DNA of 32,000 bases from Fastidiosibacter lacustris (GTDB taxonomy: Bacteria; Pseudomonadota; Gammaproteobacteria; Francisellales; Francisellaceae). Shown piece after piece: positions 2,534-15,659 of the stretch. Position 1 is the stretch's first letter. Each line of letters begins with the position of its first letter. The translations under genes and the position numbers were made by a program. The notes under the pieces were generated by a model. The model saw only the letters and a list, made by a program, of their open reading frames with translations, searched no databases and had not been told where the DNA came from. Location: assembly GCF_003428155.1 (NCBI RefSeq), contig NZ_QLIR01000002.1:90001-122000 (forward strand), read 5' to 3'.

Positions 2534-3643
2534 TTAATTTATACCAAAATATTTTTTATATAATGTATCAATATCTTTCCAGCGCTTATCATCATAAGGT
2601 AATAGATTAGAGGCAAGATAATCCCGTTCGCTGTTAAATGAAATTTCATCGCCATCTGCGCCATAGATTGCAAGGATTTTGATACGGATATCTAAATTTT
2701 TAGGTTCGCTATTTAACGCTTCTTGTAAAATAGTTTTAGCGTGTGCAACATCTTGTGCCTCTAGTAGTTCGTTGGCTTTTTGGAGTAGTTTTTTAATTTC
2801 ATCTTTGGATGCTTTTTTGCTAATACGCTCAGTCTCAGACTGTTTGTTGATCACGGCACCTTCTTTATCTTTTGTTGGATCAGATGTCTTAGCATAAAAT
2901 TGATCTTTCATTATACGTGTATCATGCTGGGCAAAAGTCGCTTTGCGTTTTAAGCGTCGCTGCCAAATTAAGAATATGACAATAACAATTAGTATAATGA
3001 TTAGCCACTGATTATAATCCGTTTTAGCTTTAGTATGGATATTGATATTTGTGTTTTCAGTATTCAGCCTGCTATCTTTATTATGGTCAACGTTGGTGTT
3101 AGTTATTGCTGGTGTAATGACAATGCCTTCAATAGTAGAGTTAGAGTGTTGGCTGGTATTTATTTGATTATTATTTGTATTGACTATGGAATTTTCAGGT
3201 AATGAATAGAGAGTTGAATCTGATTGTTTAATTGAGATAGTGGATTGCTGTTTTTTGTTAGCAAGTGTGAAAGATGTTTCTGTGAGGGATAACGCTTGCT
3301 CAAGAGTCGATGCTGGATTATTTTGATTAAGGTACAGCGTATGGCGTAATGTGTATAGTTTAACACCATCTTCTACTTCTTGTTTGGTAGTTGGAATGAG
3401 TAGTTTTTGGTTGATATTAATAATATCGTCGTTAATAGAAGGATTTTCTTTTGAGTTAATTCCCTTGATGGCTTGGATCATATCTTTGTTTGGAGTGCCT
3501 AAAATACCGTGCTTGCTCGCAATTCGCCATAACGAATCCCCTGACTTGACGGTGTATGTTGTAAGTGCAAAAGCAGGTAAAATAGGGAATAAGAATAATA
3601 ATAGTAGCATAAGCTTTTTATGCCAACTAGAGAGAGTGCTCAC
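2534..3643 (-). CDS. LysM-domain peptidoglycan-binding protein, FimV-like architecture
   Basis: 369 aa. GTG start with a perfect AAGGAG 5-6 nt upstream. Signal peptide MSTLSSWHKKLMLLLLFLFPILPAFA. LysM motif YTVKSGDSLWRIASKHG...INQKLLIP. Central TM helix WLIIILIVIVIFLIW. C-terminal TPR-like helix pair (AKTILQEALNSEPKNLDIRIKILAIYG) resembles the FimV C-terminal domain. Confidence 0.65.
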   Translation of the reverse strand: MSTLSSWHKKLMLLLLFLFPILPAFALTTYTVKSGDSLWRIASKHGILGTPNKDMIQAIKGINSKENPSINDDIININQKLLIPTTKQEVEDGVKLYTLRHTLYLNQNNPASTLEQALSLTETSFTLANKKQQSTISIKQSDSTLYSLPENSIVNTNNNQINTSQHSNSTIEGIVITPAITNTNVDHNKDSRLNTENTNINIHTKAKTDYNQWLIIILIVIVIFLIWQRRLKRKATFAQHDTRIMKDQFYAKTSDPTKDKEGAVINKQSETERISKKASKDEIKKLLQKANELLEAQDVAHAKTILQEALNSEPKNLDIRIKILAIYGADGDEISFNSERDYLASNLLPYDDKRWKDIDTLYKKYFGIN

Positions 3644-3745: not shown

Positions 3746-3774
3746 TTGAAAATAGTTGCTTTGACTATTTTCAA
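3746..3774. promoter_or_regulatory. Perfect 11-bp inverted repeat (TTGAAAATAGT-N7-ACTATTTTCAA) in the divergent region between the FimV-like gene and dotH; candidate operator
   Basis: Read directly from the sequence. Arms are 3746-3756 and 3764-3774. No U-tract follows in an orientation that would terminate either flanking gene, so an operator or structural role is more likely than a terminator. Confidence 0.25.
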
Positions 3775-3939: not shown

Positions 3940-4776
3940 TTGAAAAAACTTATATATCCAAGTTTGCTGTTACTGGGATTATCATGCAATGGAGTGTCGG
4001 CGCAAGAGACTAACTCTCCTGTAAATAACCTTGTAAGCAGCATGTTTCCACTTAGTGCAAGTGATATTCAAAGCACTAAAAGTGAGATTAGTGCAAGACA
4101 AAAGGCAGCAGCTGTTATGCCAGCTATGAGTGATGCAAAAGGAGTCTCTCGCGTGGTTATGGCTGATACTAAACCAGGCTTTGCAACTTCCCCTCCTAAT
4201 GTAAGGCTTGGTATTGGTGTAGTGAGTTCAATTATTTTTACTGATGCAAAAGGAGTGGTTTGGCCGATTACTAGTTATGTGATTGGTGACACAGAGGACT
4301 TTGCAGTCAATTGGGATAAAAAGGGTGGAATTATGATGCTTCAATCTAAGAAACCTTATGCTAATACGAACATGGCTGTGATGTTGCAAGGACGTGCAAC
4401 ACCTGTGACTTTAATGCTGCAATCCACACAAAAAGAATGGGACTATGAGCTTTATGTTCGTGTTGCTAAAGCAGAGGATGATACTCATTTGGAAAACATT
4501 AGACAATCCCCTTATCTGTTATCACTTCTATCTGGAATAGTGCCAGAAGGTGCAAAATCGTTAAGTGTTTCTGGAGAGCAAAACACAGGAAAATTTTGGC
4601 TTTATCAAGGTCATTACCTCATTTTAACTTCAGGTACACTCATTTCTCCCGCCTATATCAATCATATTGAAGATAATACTTTAGGGACGACTAACGTATA
4701 TGAAATTGTACCCACTCCTGTCGTAATGATCTCCGACAATGTAGGGGTGCACAAAATCAATCTAAAGGATGAATAA
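3940..4776 (+). CDS. dotH: Type IVB secretion core-complex protein DotH/IcmK (IncI TraN family)
   Basis: 278 aa, TTG start. Signal peptide MKKLIYPSLLLLGLSCNGVSA-QE, which fits both an SPase I AxA site and a relaxed lipobox LGLSC. Long by-eye collinear match to Legionella IcmK: PPNVRLGIGVVSSIIFTDAKGVVWPITSYVIGDTEDFAVNWDKKGGIMMLQSKKPYANTNMAVMLQGRATPVTLML here, against PPVIRLSQGFVSSLVFLDSTGAPWPIAAYDLGDPSSFNIQWDKTSNTLMIQATKLYNYGNLAVRLRGLNTPVMLTL (recalled). Confidence 0.9.
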   Translation: MKKLIYPSLLLLGLSCNGVSAQETNSPVNNLVSSMFPLSASDIQSTKSEISARQKAAAVMPAMSDAKGVSRVVMADTKPGFATSPPNVRLGIGVVSSIIFTDAKGVVWPITSYVIGDTEDFAVNWDKKGGIMMLQSKKPYANTNMAVMLQGRATPVTLMLQSTQKEWDYELYVRVAKAEDDTHLENIRQSPYLLSLLSGIVPEGAKSLSVSGEQNTGKFWLYQGHYLILTSGTLISPAYINHIEDNTLGTTNVYEIVPTPVVMISDNVGVHKINLKDE

Positions 4777-5923
4777 AGTCATGTTGAAATTTTTGAAAAA
4801 TCATCCACGTATTAGAATACTCATTATTTTTGCCATACTTGTCATTGTCTCAATTACAATGCTATTAAAGTGCTCTAAAAATGGTCAAACTTATTTGCAG
4901 TCACAAGTGAATGATAAAAAAATTGAGGTAAACCAAAAGAATCCAATAAAGGATGACCAATACCAAAAGCTCGTAGACCAGGATAGACAACAAAAAATTA
5001 AGCAAGCTGAACATAAAAATAGCAGTTATATTGAAGATGTTTTTGCTTCCTCAACTCCAACTGAAAAACAAGAAAACCAGGCTCAGGATTATCAACAGAA
5101 ACAAATGGATCCTGTTACGTTTTATGACTATAAAAATAATCAGCAACAGGTAAATAAGCCAAGCGACACACAATCAACTAAGCACTCGTATGCTATGTCA
5201 ACTATTCAAGAAAATTTAGCTGTGGATCCTCAAACTGTGCAGAAAAATTTTGAAGTCATTTTAAAGTCTTGGAATAAAGTTCCATCAATGAAGGAGGAGT
5301 TTGGTGAGTTAGCAAATGGTTATGGAAGCAAAGAATCATTTAGTGCTCAATCTAAAATGGCGATGTTTAAAGCAGGTGATATTCTTATTGCGGTGATTGA
5401 TACGGCTGTTAATAGCGATCAACCTGATACGCCAATATTGGCTCACATCGTTGTGGGACCTTACAAACATGCAAAACTGTTAGGTAGTTTTGTCAGAGAA
5501 GAAGACAAATTAGTGGTGAAATTTACGACTTTATCCATTCCAGATCGAGCAGCAAGTATCAACATCAATGCTTACGCTATTGATCAAGCCACAGCCCAAA
5601 CTGCGTTGGCAAGTGATGTAGACCATCATTATCTTTTACGTTATGGCAGTTTGTTCTCAGCTGCTTTCTTGCAAGGGTTTGGGACCTACTTCACTAATGC
5701 TCAAAACAACAGTGGTTGGTGTTATGTTGACCCAATGGGTGGAAAGCATTGTCAAGGAAGTGAAGCTGCATTAACGACGAAAAATGCAGCATATGCTGGG
5801 TTAGGGCAAATTGGTACAGCATTAAGTAGTGCGATGACGAAGCAATTTGATAAACCTCCAACAGTTACTTTAAATCAAGGTAGTGCAATAGGGGTTTTGA
5901 TTATGCAAGACATAAAAGTTTAA
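4769..5923 (+). CDS. dotG: Type IVB core-complex protein DotG/IcmE, short TraO-like form with VirB10-like C-terminal domain
   Basis: 384 aa with an N-terminal TM helix (ILIIFAILVIVSITMLL). The C-terminus matches DotG: AGDILIAVIDTAVNSDQPDTPILAHIV..., AYAIDQATAQTALASDVDHHYLLRYGSLFSAAFLQGFG, ...GVLIMQD. It overlaps the dotH stop by 8 nt. An alternative ATG at 4781 has better Shine-Dalgarno spacing (AAGGA at 4765-4769). Confidence 0.88.
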   Translation: MNKVMLKFLKNHPRIRILIIFAILVIVSITMLLKCSKNGQTYLQSQVNDKKIEVNQKNPIKDDQYQKLVDQDRQQKIKQAEHKNSSYIEDVFASSTPTEKQENQAQDYQQKQMDPVTFYDYKNNQQQVNKPSDTQSTKHSYAMSTIQENLAVDPQTVQKNFEVILKSWNKVPSMKEEFGELANGYGSKESFSAQSKMAMFKAGDILIAVIDTAVNSDQPDTPILAHIVVGPYKHAKLLGSFVREEDKLVVKFTTLSIPDRAASININAYAIDQATAQTALASDVDHHYLLRYGSLFSAAFLQGFGTYFTNAQNNSGWCYVDPMGGKHCQGSEAALTTKNAAYAGLGQIGTALSSAMTKQFDKPPTVTLNQGSAIGVLIMQDIKV

Positions 5924-5947
5924 AGACAAATTTAAGGTATAAAGTAA

Positions 5948-6745
5948 ATGAGCAATTATGATTTTTTTGAAGATAATGAGAAAAATAAGCAGCCTGATCA
6001 AGAACAAGAGGGCAGATCCAATCAGCAAGGGATGGAAGAAACCTCAACTGTAAATGACAGAAATAGTATGAATCGCTTAAGTGACAAGCTTAAAAATTTT
6101 AAATTTGAAAAAATTTATCTTGCTTATGGCTTGGCAGTATTTATGTTGATGGCAGGCGCTTATTTTATTTTTAGCACTTTATTTGCCAGTGATGATACAT
6201 CTCATCCTAGTAGGACATCACAAATATCCTCTCCAAATACAAATACGCAATTTGTCAAAACCGAGCAGCGTATAATACAAAATGTCGATAACAAAGAGCT
6301 AACACAACGCTTACAAACAATATCAACACAACTAAATGATTTACAAACATCACAGGATAATAATAGCCAGCGATTTGAAAAAACCATCATTGAAATGGCA
6401 CAGCATATTAAAAGCGTGGAGTCCAATCAAGCTCAGATGCTAAAAAGTATCCAAAGTATAATTAAATCGCTGGATGATATACAAAAAGCAGACCAAAGCA
6501 AAACTTTAATTTCACTTGTTACTGAACTTCAAAGGCAGTTGCAATATATGAATGCCAAGGAAATAAATATGAATGAAAAACTGCATTTAACAGCAGTAAT
6601 TGATGGAATTGCTTGGCTTGAAGACAAAAAAGGCAGATCGATTACCGTAAAAGAAGGTTCGCAATTAGATGGCTATGGTAAGGTTTTGAAAATAGACAGT
6701 CAGGCATATAAAGTCTATACAGCATCAGGTTTTGTGTTTGAGTAA
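5948..6745 (+). CDS. dotF: Type IVB protein DotF/IcmG (TraP family)
   Basis: 265 aa (Legionella IcmG is about 269 aa). Acidic cytoplasmic N-terminus, one TM helix (IYLAYGLAVFMLMAGAYFIFSTLF), and a Q-rich coiled coil. The C-terminal beta domain LTAVIDGIAWLEDKKGRSITVKEGSQLDGYGKVLKIDSQAYKVYTASGFVF resembles DotF AVIPGRAWL...TVREGSKIPGYG. Position after dotG is conserved. Confidence 0.75.
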   Translation: MSNYDFFEDNEKNKQPDQEQEGRSNQQGMEETSTVNDRNSMNRLSDKLKNFKFEKIYLAYGLAVFMLMAGAYFIFSTLFASDDTSHPSRTSQISSPNTNTQFVKTEQRIIQNVDNKELTQRLQTISTQLNDLQTSQDNNSQRFEKTIIEMAQHIKSVESNQAQMLKSIQSIIKSLDDIQKADQSKTLISLVTELQRQLQYMNAKEINMNEKLHLTAVIDGIAWLEDKKGRSITVKEGSQLDGYGKVLKIDSQAYKVYTASGFVFE

Positions 6746-6765
6746 ATAATTAAGATGAGTGAAAG

Positions 6766-9720
6766 ATGAATTTCTTGTATAAAAGCGTTGAAGGTTTATT
6801 TGCTTGGTTAAATGCCATTAGCAATAAAACGATCTACAGTTATTGTGAGCTCGAAAGTGCAGATGATGAAAATACTTTAATTGCTAAAGATGGCAGCTTG
6901 ATTTCAATATTGGAAATCAATGGCGTTAAGCATATGGTTGGCAATGATGAATATATCTATTTATGTGAAAAAATTACGGCTATTTTAACACCTTTATTAC
7001 AAAAACAAGGTGTCAGGATTAAATGTTTTTTTCGTTATGATGCACAAAGTACAGCGCAAGAAATAGATGATTTACTGTTGCCTTCACAAAAGAGTGCTAA
7101 GCGCTTAAATCTCAATTTAGATGATTATTTTGAGGCAAAGAAAGAAAAATTAGATGAGGTTTGTGTATTTGAAAAATGTTACTTATGTATCTGGAGCTCA
7201 GCTGGTTTATTAAGTGCACATGCTCAAAAGCAAGCTTACAGGAATAAGACTGAGCGTTTAAAAGATCAGAATGTAAAAATATCATCAAAGACACAACACT
7301 TTTTGCATGTGCTTAATGAAGTGCGATTACAGCATGCTGCATTATTGACAATGCTATTAGAGTCATTTACAGCAATGGGGTTAAGTACGCATATCATGCA
7401 AGTACGGCATTTGCTACATACAATCAAAAGGCAAATTGCGCCAGACACAACAGATAAGAGTTGGCAGCCACATTTACCAGGCGATAATTTATATCTAGGA
7501 TATGAGGATAAAGATTGGTCGAACTGGTTATGGCCTAGTCTGTCTTATCAGTTATTTTGTGAAGATGGTGCTAATGTTAATATGTCTGAGTGTGTAATTG
7601 GTAACTACCGATATGCACCTGTAACTATCAGTTTGTTTCCTCAACATATTCAAGCGTTTTATGTTTTATTTAAAACTTTGAAAGAATATCAACTGCCTTG
7701 GCAAATGTGTTTTTCACTTACAGGAAATGGCATCAAAATAAGCCAAGTAAAATCATTATTAGCACAGTTTTTAACGTTTAGTTCGCATGAAAATAAATTG
7801 ATTTGTAATGCACACAAATTACTCAAGCACATTCAAGAACACAGCGATATGCCAGTGGTTAAGCTTTCAGTAAATTTAATTACTTGGGCACCTAAATCAG
7901 AGATCGAGGAATTTCAAAAGCGTAAAGCAGCCTTAAATAAAGCAATACAAAGCTGGGGGAGTGCGCAAACGACCGAAAATTTTGGTGACCCATTTGCCAT
8001 TGTTCAATCAACCTTATTAGCAATCAATCGTGAAGGCTTTCCTTGTGCAGTTGGTGCCCCATTAGGAGACGCAATAAAGCTTATGCCATTTTTTCGACCT
8101 GCAATTTCATGGGATTATGGTGCAACCTTATTTCGTACTCCAGATGGCAAACTATGGCCTTATCAAAGTGGGTCTTCAAAGCAAGTAAGCTGGATAGAGT
8201 TAATTTATGCACGATCTGGTTCAGGTAAGTCAGTATTATTAAATTCTCTTAACCTGTCTGCTTGTCTTTGCCAAGGATTAGAAGAGCTGCCTTATCTTTC
8301 AATTTTGGATATTGGACCATCTTCAAAAGGTGTGATCGATTTGCTAAAGTCCGTAACTAAAACGCCGAATATTGCTGAGCATTATCAATTTACATTTAGT
8401 TATAACGATGCGATTAATCCTTTTGATACGCATCTAGGTGCACGCGTTCCTGGTCATGCACATAAAGCATTTTTAATTAACTTTCTTTCCGCTTTATTGT
8501 TGGAAAATGTAGAAGCTTCTTTACCGGAAGGGATGGAAGCTATGTTAAATTTAGTTATTGATGAAGTTTATAAATTACACAGTGACGTTTATCAACCAAA
8601 GCTATACCAACCAGGAATTAACCCCGAAATTGATGATAAAATTAACGTTTTTAAATCTAACGATCATGGGCAATCATGGTGGCAGGTAACGGATAAATTA
8701 TTTGAGCAAAATGAAATACGTTTAGCTCAAAAAGCACAGCGTTATGCCATGCCGTTACTTTCTGATTTAATTAGTGCAGTCAATCAAACAAGTGTTATTG
8801 ATTTATATAAAACGCTAAAACTTTCCAATGGTGAGAGCTATATTCAGTATTTTTGTCGTAATATCACGACGGTAATTAAGAATCTACCTTCATTAAATCT
8901 TGTCACACGCTTAGATGTTTATGCAAAAGTAGTGGCATTTGATTTATCCTCTGTTATGTCGGCTGTATCGGCAAGTGATTCACGCATTTCAGTTATTGCT
9001 TATATGTTAGTACGCCATTTGACCGCAAGTTACTTTTTCGTTAAAGCACAAGATTTAGAGAGTTTGGCAAATGATTATCGACATTATCACAAACATAAAT
9101 TACAGGAGTTACATAACGTTCCAAAACGCATTGTATTTGATGAGTTTCATCGCACGCGTGGTTGTGCACCGATTTTAAGACAGGTTTTGACCGACATGCG
9201 TGAAGGTCGAAAGCACAATGTGCAAATTGCATTAGCATCACAGTCCTTAACTGATTTTAACCACACTATGCTTGAGTTTGCTACTTCCGTTTTTATTTTA
9301 AGTGGAGGCAATCAAAGTGCATTAGAAAACACGAAGTCTCATTTTGGTTTAAACGAAACTGAAGCGCTTGCGTTAAAGTATGCAGTGCATGGTCCAAATA
9401 GTAATGGCATGAATTTTATTGGTCAGTTTCACACCATTAATGGTGTAAATACTCAACTACTTAATTTAAGCTTAAGTGCCTATGAGGTGTGGTTATTTAC
9501 AACTACTTCGGAGGATTGTTATTTGAAAGAAAAGCTTGTTGAGCATCTTGGTGTCATTCCAAGCTTAACGCTTTTAGCACGTAAATTTCCACAGGGTAGT
9601 GCTAAACCCTATCTTGAAACACAAGCAATACTGCATTCAGATAAATCTATAAAACAAATTGCAAATGAATTAGTAGAAACTTTCATTGATCAATATTATG
9701 GGAGTATAAAGCATGCGTGA
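6766..9720 (+). CDS. dotO: Type IVB secretion ATPase DotO/IcmB (TraU family)
   Basis: 984 aa. N-terminal SYCELESADDENTLIAKDGSLISILEINGV matches IcmB SYCELETAD...DGSLLSV. Walker A is YARSGSGKSVLLNS and Walker B-like is KRIVFDEFHR. Size fits the roughly 1000-aa IcmB family. Confidence 0.92.
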   Translation: MNFLYKSVEGLFAWLNAISNKTIYSYCELESADDENTLIAKDGSLISILEINGVKHMVGNDEYIYLCEKITAILTPLLQKQGVRIKCFFRYDAQSTAQEIDDLLLPSQKSAKRLNLNLDDYFEAKKEKLDEVCVFEKCYLCIWSSAGLLSAHAQKQAYRNKTERLKDQNVKISSKTQHFLHVLNEVRLQHAALLTMLLESFTAMGLSTHIMQVRHLLHTIKRQIAPDTTDKSWQPHLPGDNLYLGYEDKDWSNWLWPSLSYQLFCEDGANVNMSECVIGNYRYAPVTISLFPQHIQAFYVLFKTLKEYQLPWQMCFSLTGNGIKISQVKSLLAQFLTFSSHENKLICNAHKLLKHIQEHSDMPVVKLSVNLITWAPKSEIEEFQKRKAALNKAIQSWGSAQTTENFGDPFAIVQSTLLAINREGFPCAVGAPLGDAIKLMPFFRPAISWDYGATLFRTPDGKLWPYQSGSSKQVSWIELIYARSGSGKSVLLNSLNLSACLCQGLEELPYLSILDIGPSSKGVIDLLKSVTKTPNIAEHYQFTFSYNDAINPFDTHLGARVPGHAHKAFLINFLSALLLENVEASLPEGMEAMLNLVIDEVYKLHSDVYQPKLYQPGINPEIDDKINVFKSNDHGQSWWQVTDKLFEQNEIRLAQKAQRYAMPLLSDLISAVNQTSVIDLYKTLKLSNGESYIQYFCRNITTVIKNLPSLNLVTRLDVYAKVVAFDLSSVMSAVSASDSRISVIAYMLVRHLTASYFFVKAQDLESLANDYRHYHKHKLQELHNVPKRIVFDEFHRTRGCAPILRQVLTDMREGRKHNVQIALASQSLTDFNHTMLEFATSVFILSGGNQSALENTKSHFGLNETEALALKYAVHGPNSNGMNFIGQFHTINGVNTQLLNLSLSAYEVWLFTTTSEDCYLKEKLVEHLGVIPSLTLLARKFPQGSAKPYLETQAILHSDKSIKQIANELVETFIDQYYGSIKHA

Positions 9721-10183
9721 TGCAATCGACATTCATCATTTTAAGACAGAAATTATTAATTATTGGCATGGCTTTAGTAAAAAAGAACTCGTCGATTTAT
9801 TGACGGTTTATGATATTAAGGAAGCACAAGAAAATGATTTTCAATTTTCAAATGAATTTTATGAGCAATTCTATGAGATTTGCTTAGAGTCCTATCAAAA
9901 AGAACATCTATCAGAAGAGTATGTTGAGGCAATCGTTAACTTGTGTGCAAAATTACCAACCACATTGATGATGTATTTCATGCAAAATGTACACAAGAAA
10001 AATTCAAATTTGTTTCAATTGGTCTATCAAAAATTAAGCAGTGATTCTGATTATCATGAGCTTTATAAGCGTTGTATGTCATTTGAAAAAAATTTGCTTT
10101 TAACCAGAGTGTGTAGTGAGTCTCGATTATTAATAATAGATACCGTGCTGACAAGACTAATGGAGGAAAACCATGCAGGCTAA
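9713..10183 (+). CDS. Hypothetical acidic, all-helical cytoplasmic protein; possible IcmW-like type IVB adaptor/chaperone
   Basis: 156 aa with no TM helix or signal peptide. GGGAG Shine-Dalgarno. Start overlaps the dotO stop, so translation is probably coupled. Weak by-eye resemblance to Legionella IcmW (about 151 aa): NYWHGF against KYWFEY near the N-terminus, and YKRCMSFEKNLLLTRVCSESRLLIIDTVLTRLMEE against FLKRNIVFERLRLLSRVFCQYRLKLVLRALEG at the C-terminus. The IcmW sequence is recalled from memory. Confidence 0.35.
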   Translation: MRDAIDIHHFKTEIINYWHGFSKKELVDLLTVYDIKEAQENDFQFSNEFYEQFYEICLESYQKEHLSEEYVEAIVNLCAKLPTTLMMYFMQNVHKKNSNLFQLVYQKLSSDSDYHELYKRCMSFEKNLLLTRVCSESRLLIIDTVLTRLMEENHAG

Positions 10184-10799
10184 TGTGTTAAAGGCGATTA
10201 CTGAGAAAGCTGAATTTTACAAAAATAATTTTAGACTCATGATTAAAATTTTATTAGTGAGTGTATTGCTAAACTTGGTTTTACTTTTAGGTTTGTGGTA
10301 TAGCCATAAAGAAGAAAAAATCTATTTTCTTGCGATTGATAATCAGGGCGTAGTTAAAGAGCTTAATTTACCTCAAACACCAGTTGTGACCGAAGATATG
10401 TTGATCAATTGGGTTAGTCAGAATGTAAATAAATTGTATAAATTTGATTTTCTTAATTATAAAGAGCAAATTTTGGCCTTGAGACCTCTTTTTACAGATC
10501 ATGGCTGGCAGGCATTTAATGAAGCCTTTAAAGATACAATTAAGCAAGTAGTAGATCAGAAAATGGTAGCAAAAGCGGTACTAAATGGTGTGCCAGTGGT
10601 AACGGCAGTGGGGTATATTGCTGGCATAAAAAGCTGGCAAGTACAAGTGCCTATACTGGTAACTTTCTCTAAAGGGCACGAGGCTGGTAATAATAATATG
10701 ATTTTGAAATTAACGCTTCAGGAAAACACAGATATTTCAGATTTAGCAAGTGGACAATATTTTGGAATTACACAAATTATTCAGCTTAATGAAAAATAA
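10173..10799 (+). CDS. dotI: Type IVB inner-membrane protein DotI/IcmL (IcmL-like family)
   Basis: 208 aa (IcmL is about 212 aa). GGAGG Shine-Dalgarno. Collinear motifs: EFYKNNFRLM against NFYRDNYRR, a TM helix, PVVTEDMLINWVSQNV against PVVTDDFVVQWTANAV, and SWQVQVPILVTFS against AWNIQMPILITYT. Confidence 0.8.
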   Translation: MQANVLKAITEKAEFYKNNFRLMIKILLVSVLLNLVLLLGLWYSHKEEKIYFLAIDNQGVVKELNLPQTPVVTEDMLINWVSQNVNKLYKFDFLNYKEQILALRPLFTDHGWQAFNEAFKDTIKQVVDQKMVAKAVLNGVPVVTAVGYIAGIKSWQVQVPILVTFSKGHEAGNNNMILKLTLQENTDISDLASGQYFGITQIIQLNEK

Positions 10800-10817
10800 T
10801 GAATTGAGAAACCTCAT

Positions 10818-11258
10818 ATGAAAAAAACAAAAGAAAGTAAAGAGAAAATTAGATTCCGTCGTACAAAGAAAATGTTTCTAATTGATTCGTTTCAAAAGCA
10901 GCATAAATTTATTGCTAATATCTTTAAACAGGTATTTAAAATTAGACAACCTGAGCATGAAATGTCATATGAAGACTTAGCAGCAATAGGTGTAGATAGT
11001 AATCGTGTAACTTATCTAATTAGAAGATTTACCTTTATGCTGCGACTATGTTTATTGCTTGCTGTCGTTGATTATTTTTATGCGCTGTATTTATTCATCC
11101 ATGGTTATATATTAGTTGGGTTAATGGCCATATCGGTTTTGCTATTACTTTTGGCCAATGCCTTTAAATATCATTTTTGGCGCTATCAACTATTGAAGAA
11201 AAAATTAGGATGTCATTTTAAAGAATGGTTTAGTGATTTAGTAAAAGGAGTCAAATGA
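10818..11258 (+). CDS. icmV: IcmV-like small inner-membrane protein (TraX-like)
   Basis: 146 aa. Basic N-terminus and two TM helices. The C-terminal motif AFKYHFWRYQLLKKKLGCHFKEWF resembles IcmV AFRYHFWYFQIK-RKLGC---EWF (recalled). Its stop overlaps the dotA start (ATGATG). In Legionella, icmV also neighbours dotA. Confidence 0.6.
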   Translation: MKKTKESKEKIRFRRTKKMFLIDSFQKQHKFIANIFKQVFKIRQPEHEMSYEDLAAIGVDSNRVTYLIRRFTFMLRLCLLLAVVDYFYALYLFIHGYILVGLMAISVLLLLLANAFKYHFWRYQLLKKKLGCHFKEWFSDLVKGVK

Positions 11259-14200
11259 TGGCAACGGGTATAACAGAAAACTGGAGCGCCTGGCAGGTAC
11301 TTGATCAGCTATTTGGTTTTGATAGCCAAAATACTTCGGCATCTGCCGCCTTGTCAGGGCAAGCAAGTGACGTTGCTTTTAGGGAGCTTATTTATTATTT
11401 CAATTGTGGCATTATTATGGCAGTAATTGCTATTTATGCTTTTATTCTGGTAATTGGCACGATTAATACAGCAAAAGATGGTACTTTTTTAGGTAAAAAT
11501 TGGAGCTCTTATTGGATTCCTTTGCGAACTATTTTAGGTTCTGCATGTGCAATTCCATTAAAATCAGGTTTTTGTATGGCACAATACTTTGTTTTTTTGA
11601 TGGTGGGAGTGAGCATTAATTTTGCTAATCAAGTATGGCAAAATACTTATGAAAAACTCGATAAGGATAAAGTACCGCCTGTGATGAGTTTTGATATATC
11701 AGATGGAGTGAAGACTGACATTGCTTTGTATCTTTTAGCAGGTTTTTCAGCAGATATGTTAAAAAACGTTGGTATGCCTACAGGTAGTGATAATAAATAT
11801 GATGCTTTGGATACGACTAAAGTGGATCAAATGTCTTTAGTACAAGCGGCAATGAAAATCGAAAAAAACATTACCCAAAAGATGATTGACAATAATCAAT
11901 TAGACGATATTTACGTTACGAAAGACAAAAAAATTAATACAGCCAACATAGAAAGACTCAAACAAGGTATGCAGCAATGGTCAGTGATTGAGGATGATAA
12001 CTACGTTCAATTTGATGTTTACAAAATCATTAACCACTATATATTTAGGTTACCTATCACTCAACCTGATCAGGATAAAGTTTCTACGGCGTTAAATACT
12101 TATTGTTATGTTGAAAAAAAGGATGAAGGATCACAACCACGTTCTTGTCAAGACATGGTTAATAGTATTATGGCTATTCATAACAATAGTATGGATATTA
12201 ATAAGCACCTAACAAACGATGCAGATGTTATTTTTACGTTGTCTCAGGCGATTGCCAGAGGGTTTCAACAAAAATTAAAGGACGAAGCAAAAAATACCGA
12301 TCAAGATAAAGTCAACTCTACTGAAGATGATAAAAAGGAGGGTGAAAATGACTGGTGGAATGCAGATCAAAAGTACTTTAAATTGGATGGTAATTTTGAG
12401 GAAGTATTAAAAGCATTTCATAATGACTTTGCAATATTTGATGACTTATTGTATAACAACCAGCAAAGTCAAATCACTATTGATAAAGTGGGTGTGACAC
12501 TACAGTATTTAAAAAATAACAATAGTATTAGTAGCTTAGTTGACCATTATAATGATGGTTCTCTTGAATATAGACTTTATCCTGACACCCACGCAGATGA
12601 AAAAAATCCTAAGCATAATAAAGAGGTCAAATTAACTGATTATACAGAAAATGATAAAACAGATAAGTTTATTCAGTTGGATGTCACTAAGCTTAAACAG
12701 CAAATGATAGATGTTTTTCATAACGTGTACGGAGATAAGGATAATCAGTACTGTAGGGATCAATTTAGCAAGCTTTTTCCTAATCAGCATATTATTGATG
12801 GTTTTAGTTGTAAGGATTTAATCGATGCGGTTGTTCCTTCTTCTATTTCAACAGATATTGGTAAGTATTTTTTAGTTATTCAAACGGCACTTGCTAATAG
12901 TAAATCAGGGATAGAAAGCTTGAAAGCAGAATATATCAGCCAATTTTTGTACTTAGTGCGTTTGTTTCAGCTAAATAATGTCGGTTTTTTCCATGAAGGT
13001 GCAGTAGTTGCTGATATTGCTTCTCCTGCGGAGAGTTTTTTAAATGGAATTTTCCAAAAAATGAGCCTTAATGCTGATGCAGGAGGAATGTTAAGTCAAA
13101 TTTATAATATTGGTGAAGCAGTAACTCCTGGCGTTGAAATGACAAATGCCTTTTCAGCGTTAAGACAGATCCAAGGTGTGGGGCAGTCATTAATTAAAAT
13201 GGTAGTTGATACTTTGCAATCTGTTACCGAAAAAACAGAGAAAGCTTTTACAGATGTTTTAATTGAAGTATCTACTATTCAGGGTGCGTCAAAACTTGCT
13301 GCATTAGGAACTGCGGCTTTTAGTTATTTTACACCTGGGTTGCCTGGTGTGATTTCTTCAATTGGAGACGTTGGTGCACAATTGGCGACCCTTATTACTA
13401 TGACGAATTTAACGATGTCATTAGTATGGTTACCCTTAGTATTTTTTGTTTTAGTGACCTTATTTACCAATGCAGTTTTATTCGCACTTATTATTCCATT
13501 GACCCCATTTATCTTATTTTGGGCGGGAAAGATTGCATGGTTGTTACTCATTATTGAAGCTTTAGTTGCAGCCCCTGTTGTGGCATTAGGTATTGTTTAT
13601 CCAGAAGGACATGAAGTATTTGGTAAAGCGGAACCTGCTATTCAAATCATGTTGAACCTTGTCTTAAGACCTGTATTGATGGTATTTGGGTTAATTACTG
13701 CGATTATTTTGACATATCTGGTTATTGCCATTTCGGCAAAAGGATTTCACGCTGTAGCAACTCAAATTAGCAATGTGTATGGTACATCGAGTGACAGTTA
13801 TGTAACGGGGACATTAAACTTATTATTGGTATTTATGTATGCAAGCTTTATTGGTTTAGCCTTTTACAAGTGCTTTTCATTAATTTATATTTTGCCAGAT
13901 AAAATATTGCATTGGGTAGGTGGCACACATAATGAGCGTGCAGGTGCTGAAGATATGCAAGAGATGAAGTCTTCTGGTATGCAAAATGCTCAAGGTATGG
14001 CACAAGCAGGCACACAAACGGCAGAGAAATATAATCAAGGCAAAACAGAAGAAATGCATGGTGTTCAAAACATGGGCTCTAGTGTGGGACATGTCGGCAC
14101 GTCTGTGGATAATTACAAATATCATAAAAATCAGAAAGGTAGTAGCGGTGGAGGTGAAAATAGTGCGCACCTTAATAACCCCGTTAATCCTAACAAATAA
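11255..14200 (+). CDS. dotA: Type IVB polytopic membrane protein DotA (TraY family)
   Basis: 981 aa. The N-terminal TM region has GKNWSSYWIPLRTILGSACAIPLKSGFCMAQYFVFLMV, against DotA GQKWNSLWTPLRVV...LLVPKASGYS. A large hydrophilic central domain is followed by a C-terminal bundle of about five TM helices and a Q/G/M-rich tail. AAGGAG Shine-Dalgarno. The start may be the second ATG at 11258. Confidence 0.85.
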   Translation: MMATGITENWSAWQVLDQLFGFDSQNTSASAALSGQASDVAFRELIYYFNCGIIMAVIAIYAFILVIGTINTAKDGTFLGKNWSSYWIPLRTILGSACAIPLKSGFCMAQYFVFLMVGVSINFANQVWQNTYEKLDKDKVPPVMSFDISDGVKTDIALYLLAGFSADMLKNVGMPTGSDNKYDALDTTKVDQMSLVQAAMKIEKNITQKMIDNNQLDDIYVTKDKKINTANIERLKQGMQQWSVIEDDNYVQFDVYKIINHYIFRLPITQPDQDKVSTALNTYCYVEKKDEGSQPRSCQDMVNSIMAIHNNSMDINKHLTNDADVIFTLSQAIARGFQQKLKDEAKNTDQDKVNSTEDDKKEGENDWWNADQKYFKLDGNFEEVLKAFHNDFAIFDDLLYNNQQSQITIDKVGVTLQYLKNNNSISSLVDHYNDGSLEYRLYPDTHADEKNPKHNKEVKLTDYTENDKTDKFIQLDVTKLKQQMIDVFHNVYGDKDNQYCRDQFSKLFPNQHIIDGFSCKDLIDAVVPSSISTDIGKYFLVIQTALANSKSGIESLKAEYISQFLYLVRLFQLNNVGFFHEGAVVADIASPAESFLNGIFQKMSLNADAGGMLSQIYNIGEAVTPGVEMTNAFSALRQIQGVGQSLIKMVVDTLQSVTEKTEKAFTDVLIEVSTIQGASKLAALGTAAFSYFTPGLPGVISSIGDVGAQLATLITMTNLTMSLVWLPLVFFVLVTLFTNAVLFALIIPLTPFILFWAGKIAWLLLIIEALVAAPVVALGIVYPEGHEVFGKAEPAIQIMLNLVLRPVLMVFGLITAIILTYLVIAISAKGFHAVATQISNVYGTSSDSYVTGTLNLLLVFMYASFIGLAFYKCFSLIYILPDKILHWVGGTHNERAGAEDMQEMKSSGMQNAQGMAQAGTQTAEKYNQGKTEEMHGVQNMGSSVGHVGTSVDNYKYHKNQKGSSGGGENSAHLNNPVNPNK

Positions 14201-14248: not shown

Positions 14249-15052
14249 ATGAAAAATAAAATTAAATTAATTATTGGTTTAGGAGTCATTATATCCCCAA
14301 TATGGGCTTTTGCTGTCACAGACTATTATATTACGATTAAAAACAATACCCCTTATACTTTGGTAGAACCAGGAACTTGGGTGGATGAAGGACGAGGATT
14401 TCAGACGAGTAAATCTAATATTAATGGAGGTAAAGAGTATACCTATGAAGTAGATGCTACATCTGGACCAGGCGGTGATACACGAGTAAGGGGGGGGATT
14501 GCTTATAGAATTAATGATTTTAATAATGATCGTTTTATGGCTGGGATTAAATTTAACATTGATGCCCATTCGGATCAATCACCACAATGGGCAGAGGCCT
14601 ATACGAATGGGGATGATAACTTATTACACGTTGATTATAGATTTACAGGAAGTCGTTATCTTGAAGTTACAGTGACAGTAGCAATGAACGTATTCCCCTA
14701 TCGTTTTATTTCTTTGGGACTCGGTTCTTTGAATGTTAGCGCTTGTGGTCAACATGCAACGCCATTAGCAAATGGTTTCTATGGTAATCCGTGTAAAGGA
14801 AACAATGATAGCTTTCTAAGTATTGGTTTTGCAAATTCTCCTGATTTATGTAGATTGACGATTAATTCTAATGGAGAAATTAAAGATGGGTTGATTTCTT
14901 GTAATATGGGGACCGAAGCGCGTTATATTAAAGATAAATCTACAATTGTCTTTGTATGCCAATCCAAAGGTTATGGCACGAGTTCTTGTCCGTGGTTAAC
15001 TTGGGAGGGACAATCTGATTCATACAGTAAAGCTATAAATGGCACTTTTTGA
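14249..15052 (+). CDS. Secreted hypothetical protein: Sec signal peptide, beta-rich N-domain, Cys-rich C-domain
   Basis: 267 aa. Signal peptide MKNKIKLIIGLGVIISPIWAFA. The C-terminal 110 aa contain 7 cysteines. GGAG-like Shine-Dalgarno 49 bp after the dotA stop. No family recognised. Contains a G8 homopolymer. Confidence 0.7.
   Translation: MKNKIKLIIGLGVIISPIWAFAVTDYYITIKNNTPYTLVEPGTWVDEGRGFQTSKSNINGGKEYTYEVDATSGPGGDTRVRGGIAYRINDFNNDRFMAGIKFNIDAHSDQSPQWAEAYTNGDDNLLHVDYRFTGSRYLEVTVTVAMNVFPYRFISLGLGSLNVSACGQHATPLANGFYGNPCKGNNDSFLSIGFANSPDLCRLTINSNGEIKDGLISCNMGTEARYIKDKSTIVFVCQSKGYGTSSCPWLTWEGQSDSYSKAINGTF
14490..14497 (+). repeat. G8 homopolymeric tract inside the 14249-15052 CDS (codons AGG GGG GGG = RGG)
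   Basis: Read directly: cacgagtaa-GGGGGGGG-att. This is the longest G/C run I noticed in an otherwise AT-rich window. Confidence 0.9.
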
Positions 15053-15196: not shown

Positions 15197-15460
15197 ATGA
15201 GTAGTCAAAATAATAATGGTAGTAAAAATGAGCAGTATAAGGTTAATGTTGTTTCAGATGAAAAAGCAATTGCTGCGATGAAAGAAGCTTTTAAACTTTC
15301 TGCAAAATTAGAGCAGGATTCAATTAATCGTTTTTCACAAGACAATTGGTTTAATCAACCAATAGAAAAAATAGATTATGATGTTAAAAGTGGTTCAAAT
15401 TATAAAGGTGATATTTTCAAAGGTGGTTCAGACGTTGGAACACAGAATACCCCAAGATAA
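15197..15460 (+). CDS. Small hydrophilic hypothetical protein
   Basis: 87 aa. Strong GGGGGA Shine-Dalgarno 5 nt upstream of the ATG. No TM helix or signal peptide. N/K/S-rich. No family recognised. Confidence 0.5.
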   Translation: MSSQNNNGSKNEQYKVNVVSDEKAIAAMKEAFKLSAKLEQDSINRFSQDNWFNQPIEKIDYDVKSGSNYKGDIFKGGSDVGTQNTPR

Positions 15461-15659
15461 TTGTTATTGGATTATATAATAGCTTTATGAAGTCAAGTTG
15501 ACTTAAACCAGTAAATCGATTTCATCAAGCTCTAAAAGTTTCAACTGATGTTTTGATTGCAAGGTCACCTAGCTCTTGCAAGAAGAAAAGTACACTTTCG
15601 TTCCCATGATTAACATCAATAGATAGCGTTTTTTATTTTTAATAAAGAGGAATTTTAAT

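Follow-up and report, generated by a model that had tools for sequence, protein, structure and literature searches.

The 32,000-nucleotide (nt) stretch examined here (NZ_QLIR01000002.1, positions 90,001 to 122,000; hereafter the window) belongs to the chromosome of Fastidiosibacter lacustris, a member of the Fastidiosibacteraceae (Francisellaceae in GTDB). Between positions 3940 and 14200 of its plus strand lie eight co-directional open reading frames (ORFs) that encode components of a Dot/Icm-type, or type IVB, secretion system (T4BSS). The genes abut or overlap one another in the order dotH-dotG-dotF-dotO-icmW-dotI-icmV-dotA. Overlaps of 8 nt occur at the dotH/dotG and dotO/icmW junctions and one of 11 nt at icmW/dotI, while dotG/dotF, dotF/dotO and dotI/icmV are separated by gaps of 24, 20 and 18 nt, respectively. 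The icmV stop codon and the dotA start codon share the letters ATGA (aaATGAtg), a 4-nt overlap. The tight, operon-like packing (overlaps of 4-11 nt, gaps of 18-24 nt) and the coupled icmV/dotA junction had both been pointed out in an initial annotation made from the letters alone, and both can be read directly in the sequence. All eight ORFs are intact, with no frameshifts or premature stops, in F. lacustris and in 'Candidatus Nebulobacter yamunensis', an obligate endosymbiont of the ciliate Euplotes aediculatus that shares 99.38% average nucleotide identity with F. lacustris (PMC9837558) and is referred to below as the twin strain. We infer that the eight genes very probably form a single transcription unit with translational coupling. 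A promoter and terminator scan of the window returned fewer matches than shuffled sequence and was not used as evidence.

Component identities were assigned from Pfam and NCBIfam profile searches, protein homology searches and phmmer comparisons against the PDB (Table 1). These searches back the names initially proposed for DotH, DotG, DotF, DotO, DotI, the IcmV-like protein and DotA, with the qualification that IcmV scores 73.8 bits against NF038219, below the equivalog cutoff of 100. The 156-residue product that had been left unnamed can now be identified as IcmW, with a PF23130 score of 70.5 bits against a cutoff of 27 and the same name in UniRef. DotH is 71% identical to its ortholog in Cysteiniphilum halobium. 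The start of dotH is most likely TTG at 3940, which is preferred because it yields a predicted signal peptide that the database start at ATG 4042 (244 residues) drops; the database calls for DotG and DotA also begin slightly later, at 4781 and 11258. DotG matches only positions 730-1008 of the NF033900 model, that is, its C-terminal ~280 positions, as well as TraO (NF033884, 1e-28) and TrbI of the TrbI/VirB10 family (PF03743, 1e-15), and it is without the long repeat region of the Legionella protein. DotO has no Pfam domain and a weak VirB4 match (TIGR00929), and over its full length it is 37-45% identical to proteins named IcmB at source from Legionella, Piscirickettsia and many metagenome-assembled genomes (MAGs); among the full-length homologs that carry this name, identity is 79% for C. 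halobium, 42% for P. salmonis and 37-39% for Legionella. DotA reaches 216 bits against a TIGR04346 cutoff of 100 and matches the solved Legionella DotA (PDB 9ngy, E=5.4e-42); DotO, IcmW and IcmV gave no match in the PDB.

Table 1. Coordinates of the genes and tract described in the text, with the supporting matches.
Feature	Coordinates	Strand	Description
dotH/icmK	3940..4776	+	278 aa from TTG; PF12293 E=6.5e-41; predicted Sec signal peptide MKKLIYPSLLLLGLSCNGVSA/QE
dotG/icmE, short TraO-like form	4769..5923	+	384 aa; NF033900 E=5.7e-68
dotF/icmG	5948..6745	+	265 aa; NF038218 E=5e-21; TraP NF033885 9e-10
dotO/icmB, VirB4-family ATPase	6766..9720	+	984 aa; Walker A GSGKS present
icmW, coupling-complex adaptor/chaperone	9713..10183	+	156 aa; PF23130 E=2.1e-19; NF038222 1.3e-8
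dotI/icmL, VirB8-like inner-membrane component	10173..10799	+	208 aa; NF038072 E=4.7e-39; PF11393 3.3e-31
icmV-like small inner-membrane protein	10818..11258	+	146 aa; NF038219 E=1.5e-20
dotA	11255..14200	+	981 aa; NF033886 E=5.2e-73; TIGR04346 9e-64
w267, conserved accessory gene directly after dotA	14249..15052	+	Predicted secreted, Cys-containing protein with signal peptide
w87, w381, w249, three conserved accessory genes	15197..17599	+	Same order in C. halobium and Caedibacter taeniospiralis
w276, putative LuxR-type regulator, last gene before tamB	17798..18628	+	PF00196 GerE E=2.8e-4, below cutoff
High-divergence tract between strains	10334..14170		3' part of dotI, icmV and dotA; ~56 of 100 differences in 32 kb

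The block thus carries several marks of a T4BSS, namely the DotO/IcmB ATPase, DotA/TraY and the core proteins DotH, DotG and DotF. Profile searches confirmed that DotB, DotC, DotD, DotL, DotM and DotN, whose absence had already been remarked upon, are not encoded in the window. Homologs of IcmS, IcmQ/R, DotK, DotU/IcmF and IcmX were likewise not detected there; for the IcmS/IcmW pair, IcmW was found and no ORF of at least 80 residues in the window gave an IcmS-like match, a search that small divergent proteins may escape.

The same eight genes, in identical order and strand, are also found in C. halobium, Cysteiniphilum litorale and the MAG ERZ25071805, with different flanking genes in each, and the position of icmV is the same in all copies. 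We refer to this block as module A. The DotO proteins of these genomes are 79% (C. halobium), 61% (the MAG) and 53% (C. litorale) identical to that of F. lacustris. The initial annotation had described the locus as condensed and re-ordered; given this recurrence, it is not a one-off condensed system. To map the remaining components, we searched species-representative genomes, one for each species, with the Fangia DotL as query and kept the best 80 of 284 loci. The DotL loci define a second block, module B, with the arrangement x-x-dotD-dotC-dotB-icmT-dotL-x-dotM-dotN (f185-f172-dotD-dotC-dotB-icmT-dotL-f95-dotM-dotN); it begins with two small ORFs, one of them weakly TraQ/IcmC-like, and has an ORF of ~95 residues between dotL and dotM. 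Equivalents of IcmC/D/J had been noted as missing between dotF and dotO, which holds at this locus, but they have not simply been deleted: the module B of relatives holds the weak TraQ/IcmC-like ORFs as well as DotN.

In relatives, module B lies 2-22 kb from module A or is contiguous with it. It is located on the same contig about 22 kb downstream (dotO to dotL) and inverted in C. halobium, upstream on the same contig in C. litorale, with its dotN end ~14 kb before dotH, and ~3 kb after w267-w249 in Caedibacter taeniospiralis. Three other genomes have module B directly after icmV-dotA (loci L026, L030 and L035), and loci L007, L025 and L047 present further permutations of the two modules. Fangia has module B loci together with a DotO of the module A clade. 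A scan of metagenomes with DotA recovered four loci, none showing DNA downstream of module A. The eight-gene block is therefore one half of a two-module architecture that recurs in the Fastidiosibacteraceae. A T4BSS has been reported in Fangia, possibly acquired from Piscirickettsia (PMC8896642, PMC11338181), and isolated icm genes have been mentioned for Cysteiniphilum (PMC10228398) and Caedibacter (PMC7297999). The open-access literature searched gave no account of the two modules as an architecture, or of a genome with module A only, which agrees with the suggestion that the locus is an uncharacterised architectural variant. The genomes of this family contain several paralogous Dot/Icm sets in many permutations, with up to 5 DotL loci in Facilibium.

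The closest plasmid-borne homologs are those of Piscirickettsia salmonis, at 42% DotO identity, for which a single Dot/Icm cassette has been published (PMC5671498; also PMC3557282). This cassette, found on the chromosome and on a plasmid, reads dotH-G-F-x-x-dotD-C-B-icmT-dotL-x-dotM-dotN-icmW-dotO-x-dotA-x-dotI-x-icmV. It is made up of the same protein families, including a short TraO-like DotG, IcmW and IcmV; all genes are co-directional, with dotH-dotG-dotF at the head and icmW, dotO, dotA, dotI and icmV grouped at the tail, and modules A and B combined amount to its gene set. In contrast to this one ~21-kb cassette, the block x-x-dotD-dotC-dotB-icmT-dotL-x-dotM-dotN that separates dotF from icmW is not present at the F. 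lacustris locus, where dotO comes 20 nt after dotF, and the tail icmW-dotO-x-dotA-x-dotI-x-icmV is replaced by dotO-icmW-dotI-icmV-dotA without intervening ORFs. Three features are new with respect to the P. salmonis lineage: the B block has been excised, the genes after dotF run locally as dotO-icmW-dotI-icmV-dotA, and the packing is tight. Other Fastidiosibacteraceae share the identical eight-gene order, DotO proteins of 53-79% identity and the same family of LuxR-like regulator, and C. halobium and Caedibacter also share the accessory genes after dotA. They differ in that they carry module B, whereas F. lacustris and the twin strain have tamB after the regulator and no detectable DotL.

The Legionella and Coxiella systems have homologous components and a presumed role in effector translocation into eukaryotic cells. 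Their genes are distributed over one region running icmT...icmB and another in which icmX-W-V are divergent from dotA-B-C-D. In F. lacustris, on the other hand, dotI follows dotO, icmW and icmV are co-directional with dotA, and DotG is the short form described above. The Legionellales loci are largely collinear across their two regions (PMC8896642). The proposed departure from the gene orders of Legionella/Coxiella and of the IncI plasmid R64 was therefore borne out, but the description of the locus as re-ordered applies only in part, as much of the arrangement, with icmW, dotO, dotA, dotI and icmV co-directional with dotH-G-F, is already seen in the P. salmonis cassette.

Common ancestry with IncI1 R64 and other MPF_I plasmids is evident in the pairs DotG/TraO, DotF/TraP, DotO/TraU, DotA/TraY, DotI/TraM and DotH/TraN. 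We considered whether a conjugative element of the IncI-like (MPF_I) kind could have integrated in the chromosome, with the block as its mating-pair-formation half. DotG, DotF, DotO and DotA do match the IncI TraO, TraP, TraU and TraY families, and DotO homologs were found on 3,779 plasmids. These plasmid homologs are only about 30% identical, with P. salmonis (42%) excepted, and occur in the order traM-N-O-P...U, seen as dotI-dotH-dotG-icmG...icmB; the homolog search found the order of the window on no plasmid. MPF_I plasmids encode a relaxase and a coupling protein and have no IcmW, which together with IcmV is a hallmark of the lineage that translocates effectors (PMC8896642). No integrase, relaxase, coupling protein or tRNA gene was found near the eight-gene block in the window and its flanks, no tRNA gene or Rfam family was detected anywhere in the window, and its G+C content is even (about 0.29-0.42), with a base composition that matches the genome. 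Housekeeping genes flank the island, with ugd and, at a greater distance, gltX and gmk on the upstream side, and tamB, tamA, tadA and asd downstream. A conjugative origin is thus extremely improbable. Given the presence of IcmW and IcmV, the lack of a relaxase, the chromosomal context and the ~30% identity of MPF_I homologs outside Piscirickettsia, we conclude with high confidence that the block represents the channel half of a Piscirickettsia/Fastidiosibacteraceae-type Dot/Icm system, belonging to the effector-translocating lineage and not to a conjugative element.

We next asked where the module B of F. lacustris might be. The window extends 18 kb past dotA, and the addition of 9 kb on each side from the contig of the twin strain gave 51 kb of sequence. 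A tblastn search of these 51 kb with ten C. halobium module B proteins returned only noise (E<=1), so the missing components do not lie just outside the window, and in both strains the island ends after the w276 regulator, with tamB directly next. DotC and DotD are absent from the window and from the 51 kb, no genome-wide search having been made for them; the same limit applies to DotB, which is not in the 51 kb, where the sole nearby gene of the T2SSE family belongs to a Trb locus. For DotL we turned to the genome scan, for which F. lacustris is assumed to be included in the representative-genome collection. No Fastidiosibacter DotL appears among the best 80 of 284 loci, in which all other genera of the family are represented. 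The loci kept include 3 from Fangia, 2 from Caedibacter and 5 from Facilibium, along with those of Cysteiniphilum species and of Piscirickettsia. At least one peptide pattern of the scan is present in 11 of 11 named DotL proteins of the family, and at least three in those of the orthologous group. Similarly, no DotL named as F. lacustris occurs in the top 120 protein matches to the P. salmonis or C. halobium DotL, where every other genus is listed, and the F. lacustris DotO was match 1 in the equivalent search with DotO. According to BUSCO, both assemblies are 97.6-99.2% complete (PMC9837558). We therefore regard a DotL ortholog as quite likely absent from F. lacustris, and are moderately confident that module B as a whole is missing from the genome.

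Several candidates were examined and set aside. The unnamed DotL matches at NCBI belong to Caedibacter or are singletons of unknown origin at MAG-like identity. Another unnamed DotL (P0205), a candidate ortholog from the Fastidiosibacter lineage, is encoded on a metagenomic contig with an eroded module B. The published statement that F. lacustris lacks virD4 probably concerns the type T system, given that F-type TraD appears among the genes unique to F. lacustris. The type IV secretion system (T4SS) genes and the coupling protein named by Prokka in the strain-unique gene lists (Table S4) are part of other systems, an F-type element in the case of F. lacustris and a VirB/Trb-type island in that of the twin strain. 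The paper comparing the two organisms ran TXSScan including the type I class, and its main text has no discussion of a Dot/Icm locus (PMC9837558).

The main rival to a missing module B is a complete but dispersed T4BSS. Module B would then lie on another contig, or at a distance of more than 27 kb, and both halves would assemble into a normal machine that translocates effectors and is used on ciliate or amoebal hosts. The modules of relatives are already apart, by up to about 22 kb and with an inversion in C. halobium, the twin strain lives obligately inside host cells as a symbiont (PMC9837558), which usually goes with reliance on such systems, and the evidence for the absence of module B is indirect. 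A dispersed system would also fit the intact genes and the selection and rate data given below. It is harder to reconcile with the DotL searches, as an ortholog would be expected at ~75-85% identity, near the top of both protein searches and within reach of a scan whose patterns occur in every named DotL of the family, as well as with the near completeness of both assemblies and with the attribution of the Table S4 genes to other systems. On balance, we consider a dispersed system rather unlikely. Of the two initial suggestions, a minimal or a split system, the split is observed in the relatives; in F. lacustris the second half was not found by the searches made, and a minimal system is a low-probability possibility.

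To determine how module A is maintained, we compared the window with contig JAMBMW010000002.1 of the twin strain. The two are 99.69% identical, differing by 99 substitutions and one 1-nt indel, and 65 of the 99 substitutions fall in module A. Fifty of these are synonymous and 15 nonsynonymous, giving a ratio of nonsynonymous to synonymous rates (dN/dS) of about 0.08 (p=3e-22 against neutrality), which shows that module A is under strong purifying selection between the two strains. Corresponding values are 5 synonymous and 7 nonsynonymous changes in the flanking housekeeping genes (dN/dS 0.38, p=0.09) and 3 and 7 in the five accessory genes w267-w276 (dN/dS 0.57, p=0.31). Most differences are concentrated in a single tract (Table 1), which has about 56 in 3.9 kb, overwhelmingly synonymous, compared with 1-3 per kb elsewhere. 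Synonymous divergence is about 5% in the tract versus about 0.27% in the flanking housekeeping genes, a pattern suggesting that the tract was probably imported by homologous recombination from a more distant relative. The genes reached by the tract, dotI-icmV-dotA, have 41 synonymous and 12 nonsynonymous changes (dN/dS about 0.075, p=1e-18); outside it, dotH-icmW still have 9 and 3 (dN/dS about 0.09, p=8e-5). In relative-rate tests against C. halobium, which keeps module B, unique changes numbered 154 versus 200 with one outgroup and 151 versus 170 with another, and thus gave no sign of acceleration in the Fastidiosibacter lineage.

Taken together, the intact genes, the purifying selection and the lack of acceleration argue against a long-dead relic. 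A younger non-functional relic would require that module B was recently deleted, that module A has had too little time to decay, and that its apparent constraint was inherited from full systems in the recombination donor or in ancestors. One recombination tract does hold most of the differences, the downstream accessory genes have more nonsynonymous than synonymous changes, and Legionella requires DotC, DotD, DotB and DotL for both assembly and translocation. Eroding T4BSS parts are also present elsewhere in the family, in the form of a DotL split into 443 and 318 residues in Caedibacter (L023) and of a split dotB with no dotN at a metagenomic locus (L095). Against this, the eight genes remain free of frameshifts and premature stops in two strains, the excess of synonymous changes persists outside the tract, and the lineage shows no acceleration, and we judge a relic to be unlikely.

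We favour the interpretation that module A is an orphaned channel half of a Dot/Icm system whose partner, module B, is apparently missing from both F. lacustris and the twin strain, and assign this a probability of roughly 60%. In terms of proposed roles, DotH, DotG and DotF would form the periplasm-spanning core, DotO would act as a VirB4-type ATPase, DotI, IcmV and DotA would be inner-membrane parts and IcmW would serve as an effector adaptor, with the lineage-specific accessory genes and the putative LuxR-type regulator following dotA. In relatives, module B would supply the DotC/DotD lipoproteins that anchor the core in the outer membrane, along with the DotB ATPase, IcmT and the DotL-DotM-DotN coupling complex, and the two modules would jointly deliver effector proteins into eukaryotic hosts. 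In Legionella, DotC and DotD are needed for the outer-membrane assembly of DotH, and DotL, DotM, DotN and DotB for substrate recruitment and energisation. Because of these requirements, module A alone would be predicted not to recruit substrates by the canonical DotL route or to translocate effectors canonically. It would then either keep some other selected role or have been orphaned very recently.

A number of points weigh against orphan status. Strong purifying selection is what would be expected of a complete working system and so somewhat opposes it, and the constraint on module A stands in real tension with a missing module B; some of the selection signal may also have been inherited from a recombination donor with a full system. 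The genome-wide absence of module B is itself deduced from negative searches for DotL, since DotB, DotC and DotD were never searched genome-wide, and a DotL scoring below 798 bits in the C. halobium protein search or ranking below 80 in the genome scan would have been missed.

If the two strains do keep only the channel half, without the coupling protein, DotB or DotC/DotD, module A could be a type IVB subassembly that has its own function, such as a coupling-protein-independent exporter or an envelope complex, which we think quite unlikely. A more specific version is a self-sufficient, reduced machine derived from a T4BSS that exports periplasmic substrates delivered by Sec, for example the w267 protein. 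Such a machine would be comparable with type IVA systems that lack VirD4, for example Bordetella Ptl; module A has analogues of the essential channel parts VirB4 (DotO), VirB8 (DotI) and VirB9/10 (DotH and DotG) in addition to the polytopic DotA, is under purifying selection with no detectable module B, and is syntenic in several genomes with w267, which has a predicted signal peptide. Nevertheless, we know of no precedent among type IVB systems, module A and w267 accompany module B in every relative examined, so that nothing is specific to the A-only state, and no role is known for IcmW in the absence of DotL and IcmS. We consider a machine of this kind very unlikely.

Dot/Icm systems have been treated as largely collinear, all-or-nothing machines, mainly on the basis of the Legionellales. 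In the Fastidiosibacteraceae the same parts have been shuffled into two portable modules in many permutations, and one species, represented by a free-living isolate and by an obligate endosymbiont of ciliates, seems to have only the channel half, on which constraint persists. Should module B really be absent, F. lacustris would offer a cultivable system in which to study type IVB core function without the coupling complex, as well as the ways in which such machines are taken apart or repurposed. If module B instead lies elsewhere in the genome, the locus would still represent an undescribed split architecture and would be an obvious candidate host-interaction system for the Nebulobacter-Euplotes symbiosis, one not discussed in the genome paper.

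Five accessory genes separate dotA from tamB, none with a confident family assignment. The first, w267, had no match in Pfam, NCBIfam or the PDB; its orthologs follow dotA in C. halobium (62%) and adjoin module B in Caedibacter (54%), with a weak match in C. litorale. Profile searches gave no family matches for w87, w381 and w249, and phmmer against the PDB found nothing for w381 and an insignificant match for w249 (E=0.51); these three genes are candidate effectors, chaperones or components. In C. halobium, w267, w87, w381, w249 and a w276-like gene are syntenic after dotA. The product of w276 has a weak LuxR/GerE helix-turn-helix match. Its paralogs occur in tandem beside module B in four other genomes, those of C. 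halobium, C. litorale, Cysteiniphilum sp. 19S12-1 and Caedibacter, and in the MAG they come before dotH. Over the 32 kb the two strains differ by a single indel, one extra T in Nebulobacter at position 15633, which is intergenic, upstream of w381, and coincides with a difference in the start call of that gene (383 versus 381 residues).

A repeat search of the window found no convincing flanking repeat marking the island. An imperfect 25-nt direct repeat, 84% identical, at 3747-3771 and 18403-18427 brackets dotH through w276; it could mark the island ends, and is probably a chance occurrence in AT-rich DNA. Divergent from dotH, on the minus strand at 2534-3643, is a gene for a LysM-domain protein with a central transmembrane segment that looks FimV-like by its layout, and which is not kept beside module A in relatives.

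Between asd and the type IV pilus genes pilMNOPQ lies another type IV system, of the Trb/P type and unrelated to the first, at 26508-31010 of the window and continuing at locus L092:6167-15943. Its genes encode TrbC/VirB2, TrbD/VirB3, TrbE/VirB4, a 206-residue VirB8-like protein, TrbF, TrbG/CagX, TrbI, a 123-residue ORF, TrbL, a TraF peptidase and TrbB/VirB11. As it lacks a coupling protein and a relaxase, this T4SS too is either incomplete or non-conjugative. Over 47 nt, the Walker A regions of dotO (8198-8244) and trbE (28620-28666) are 77% identical at the nucleotide level, a trace of shared VirB4 ancestry.

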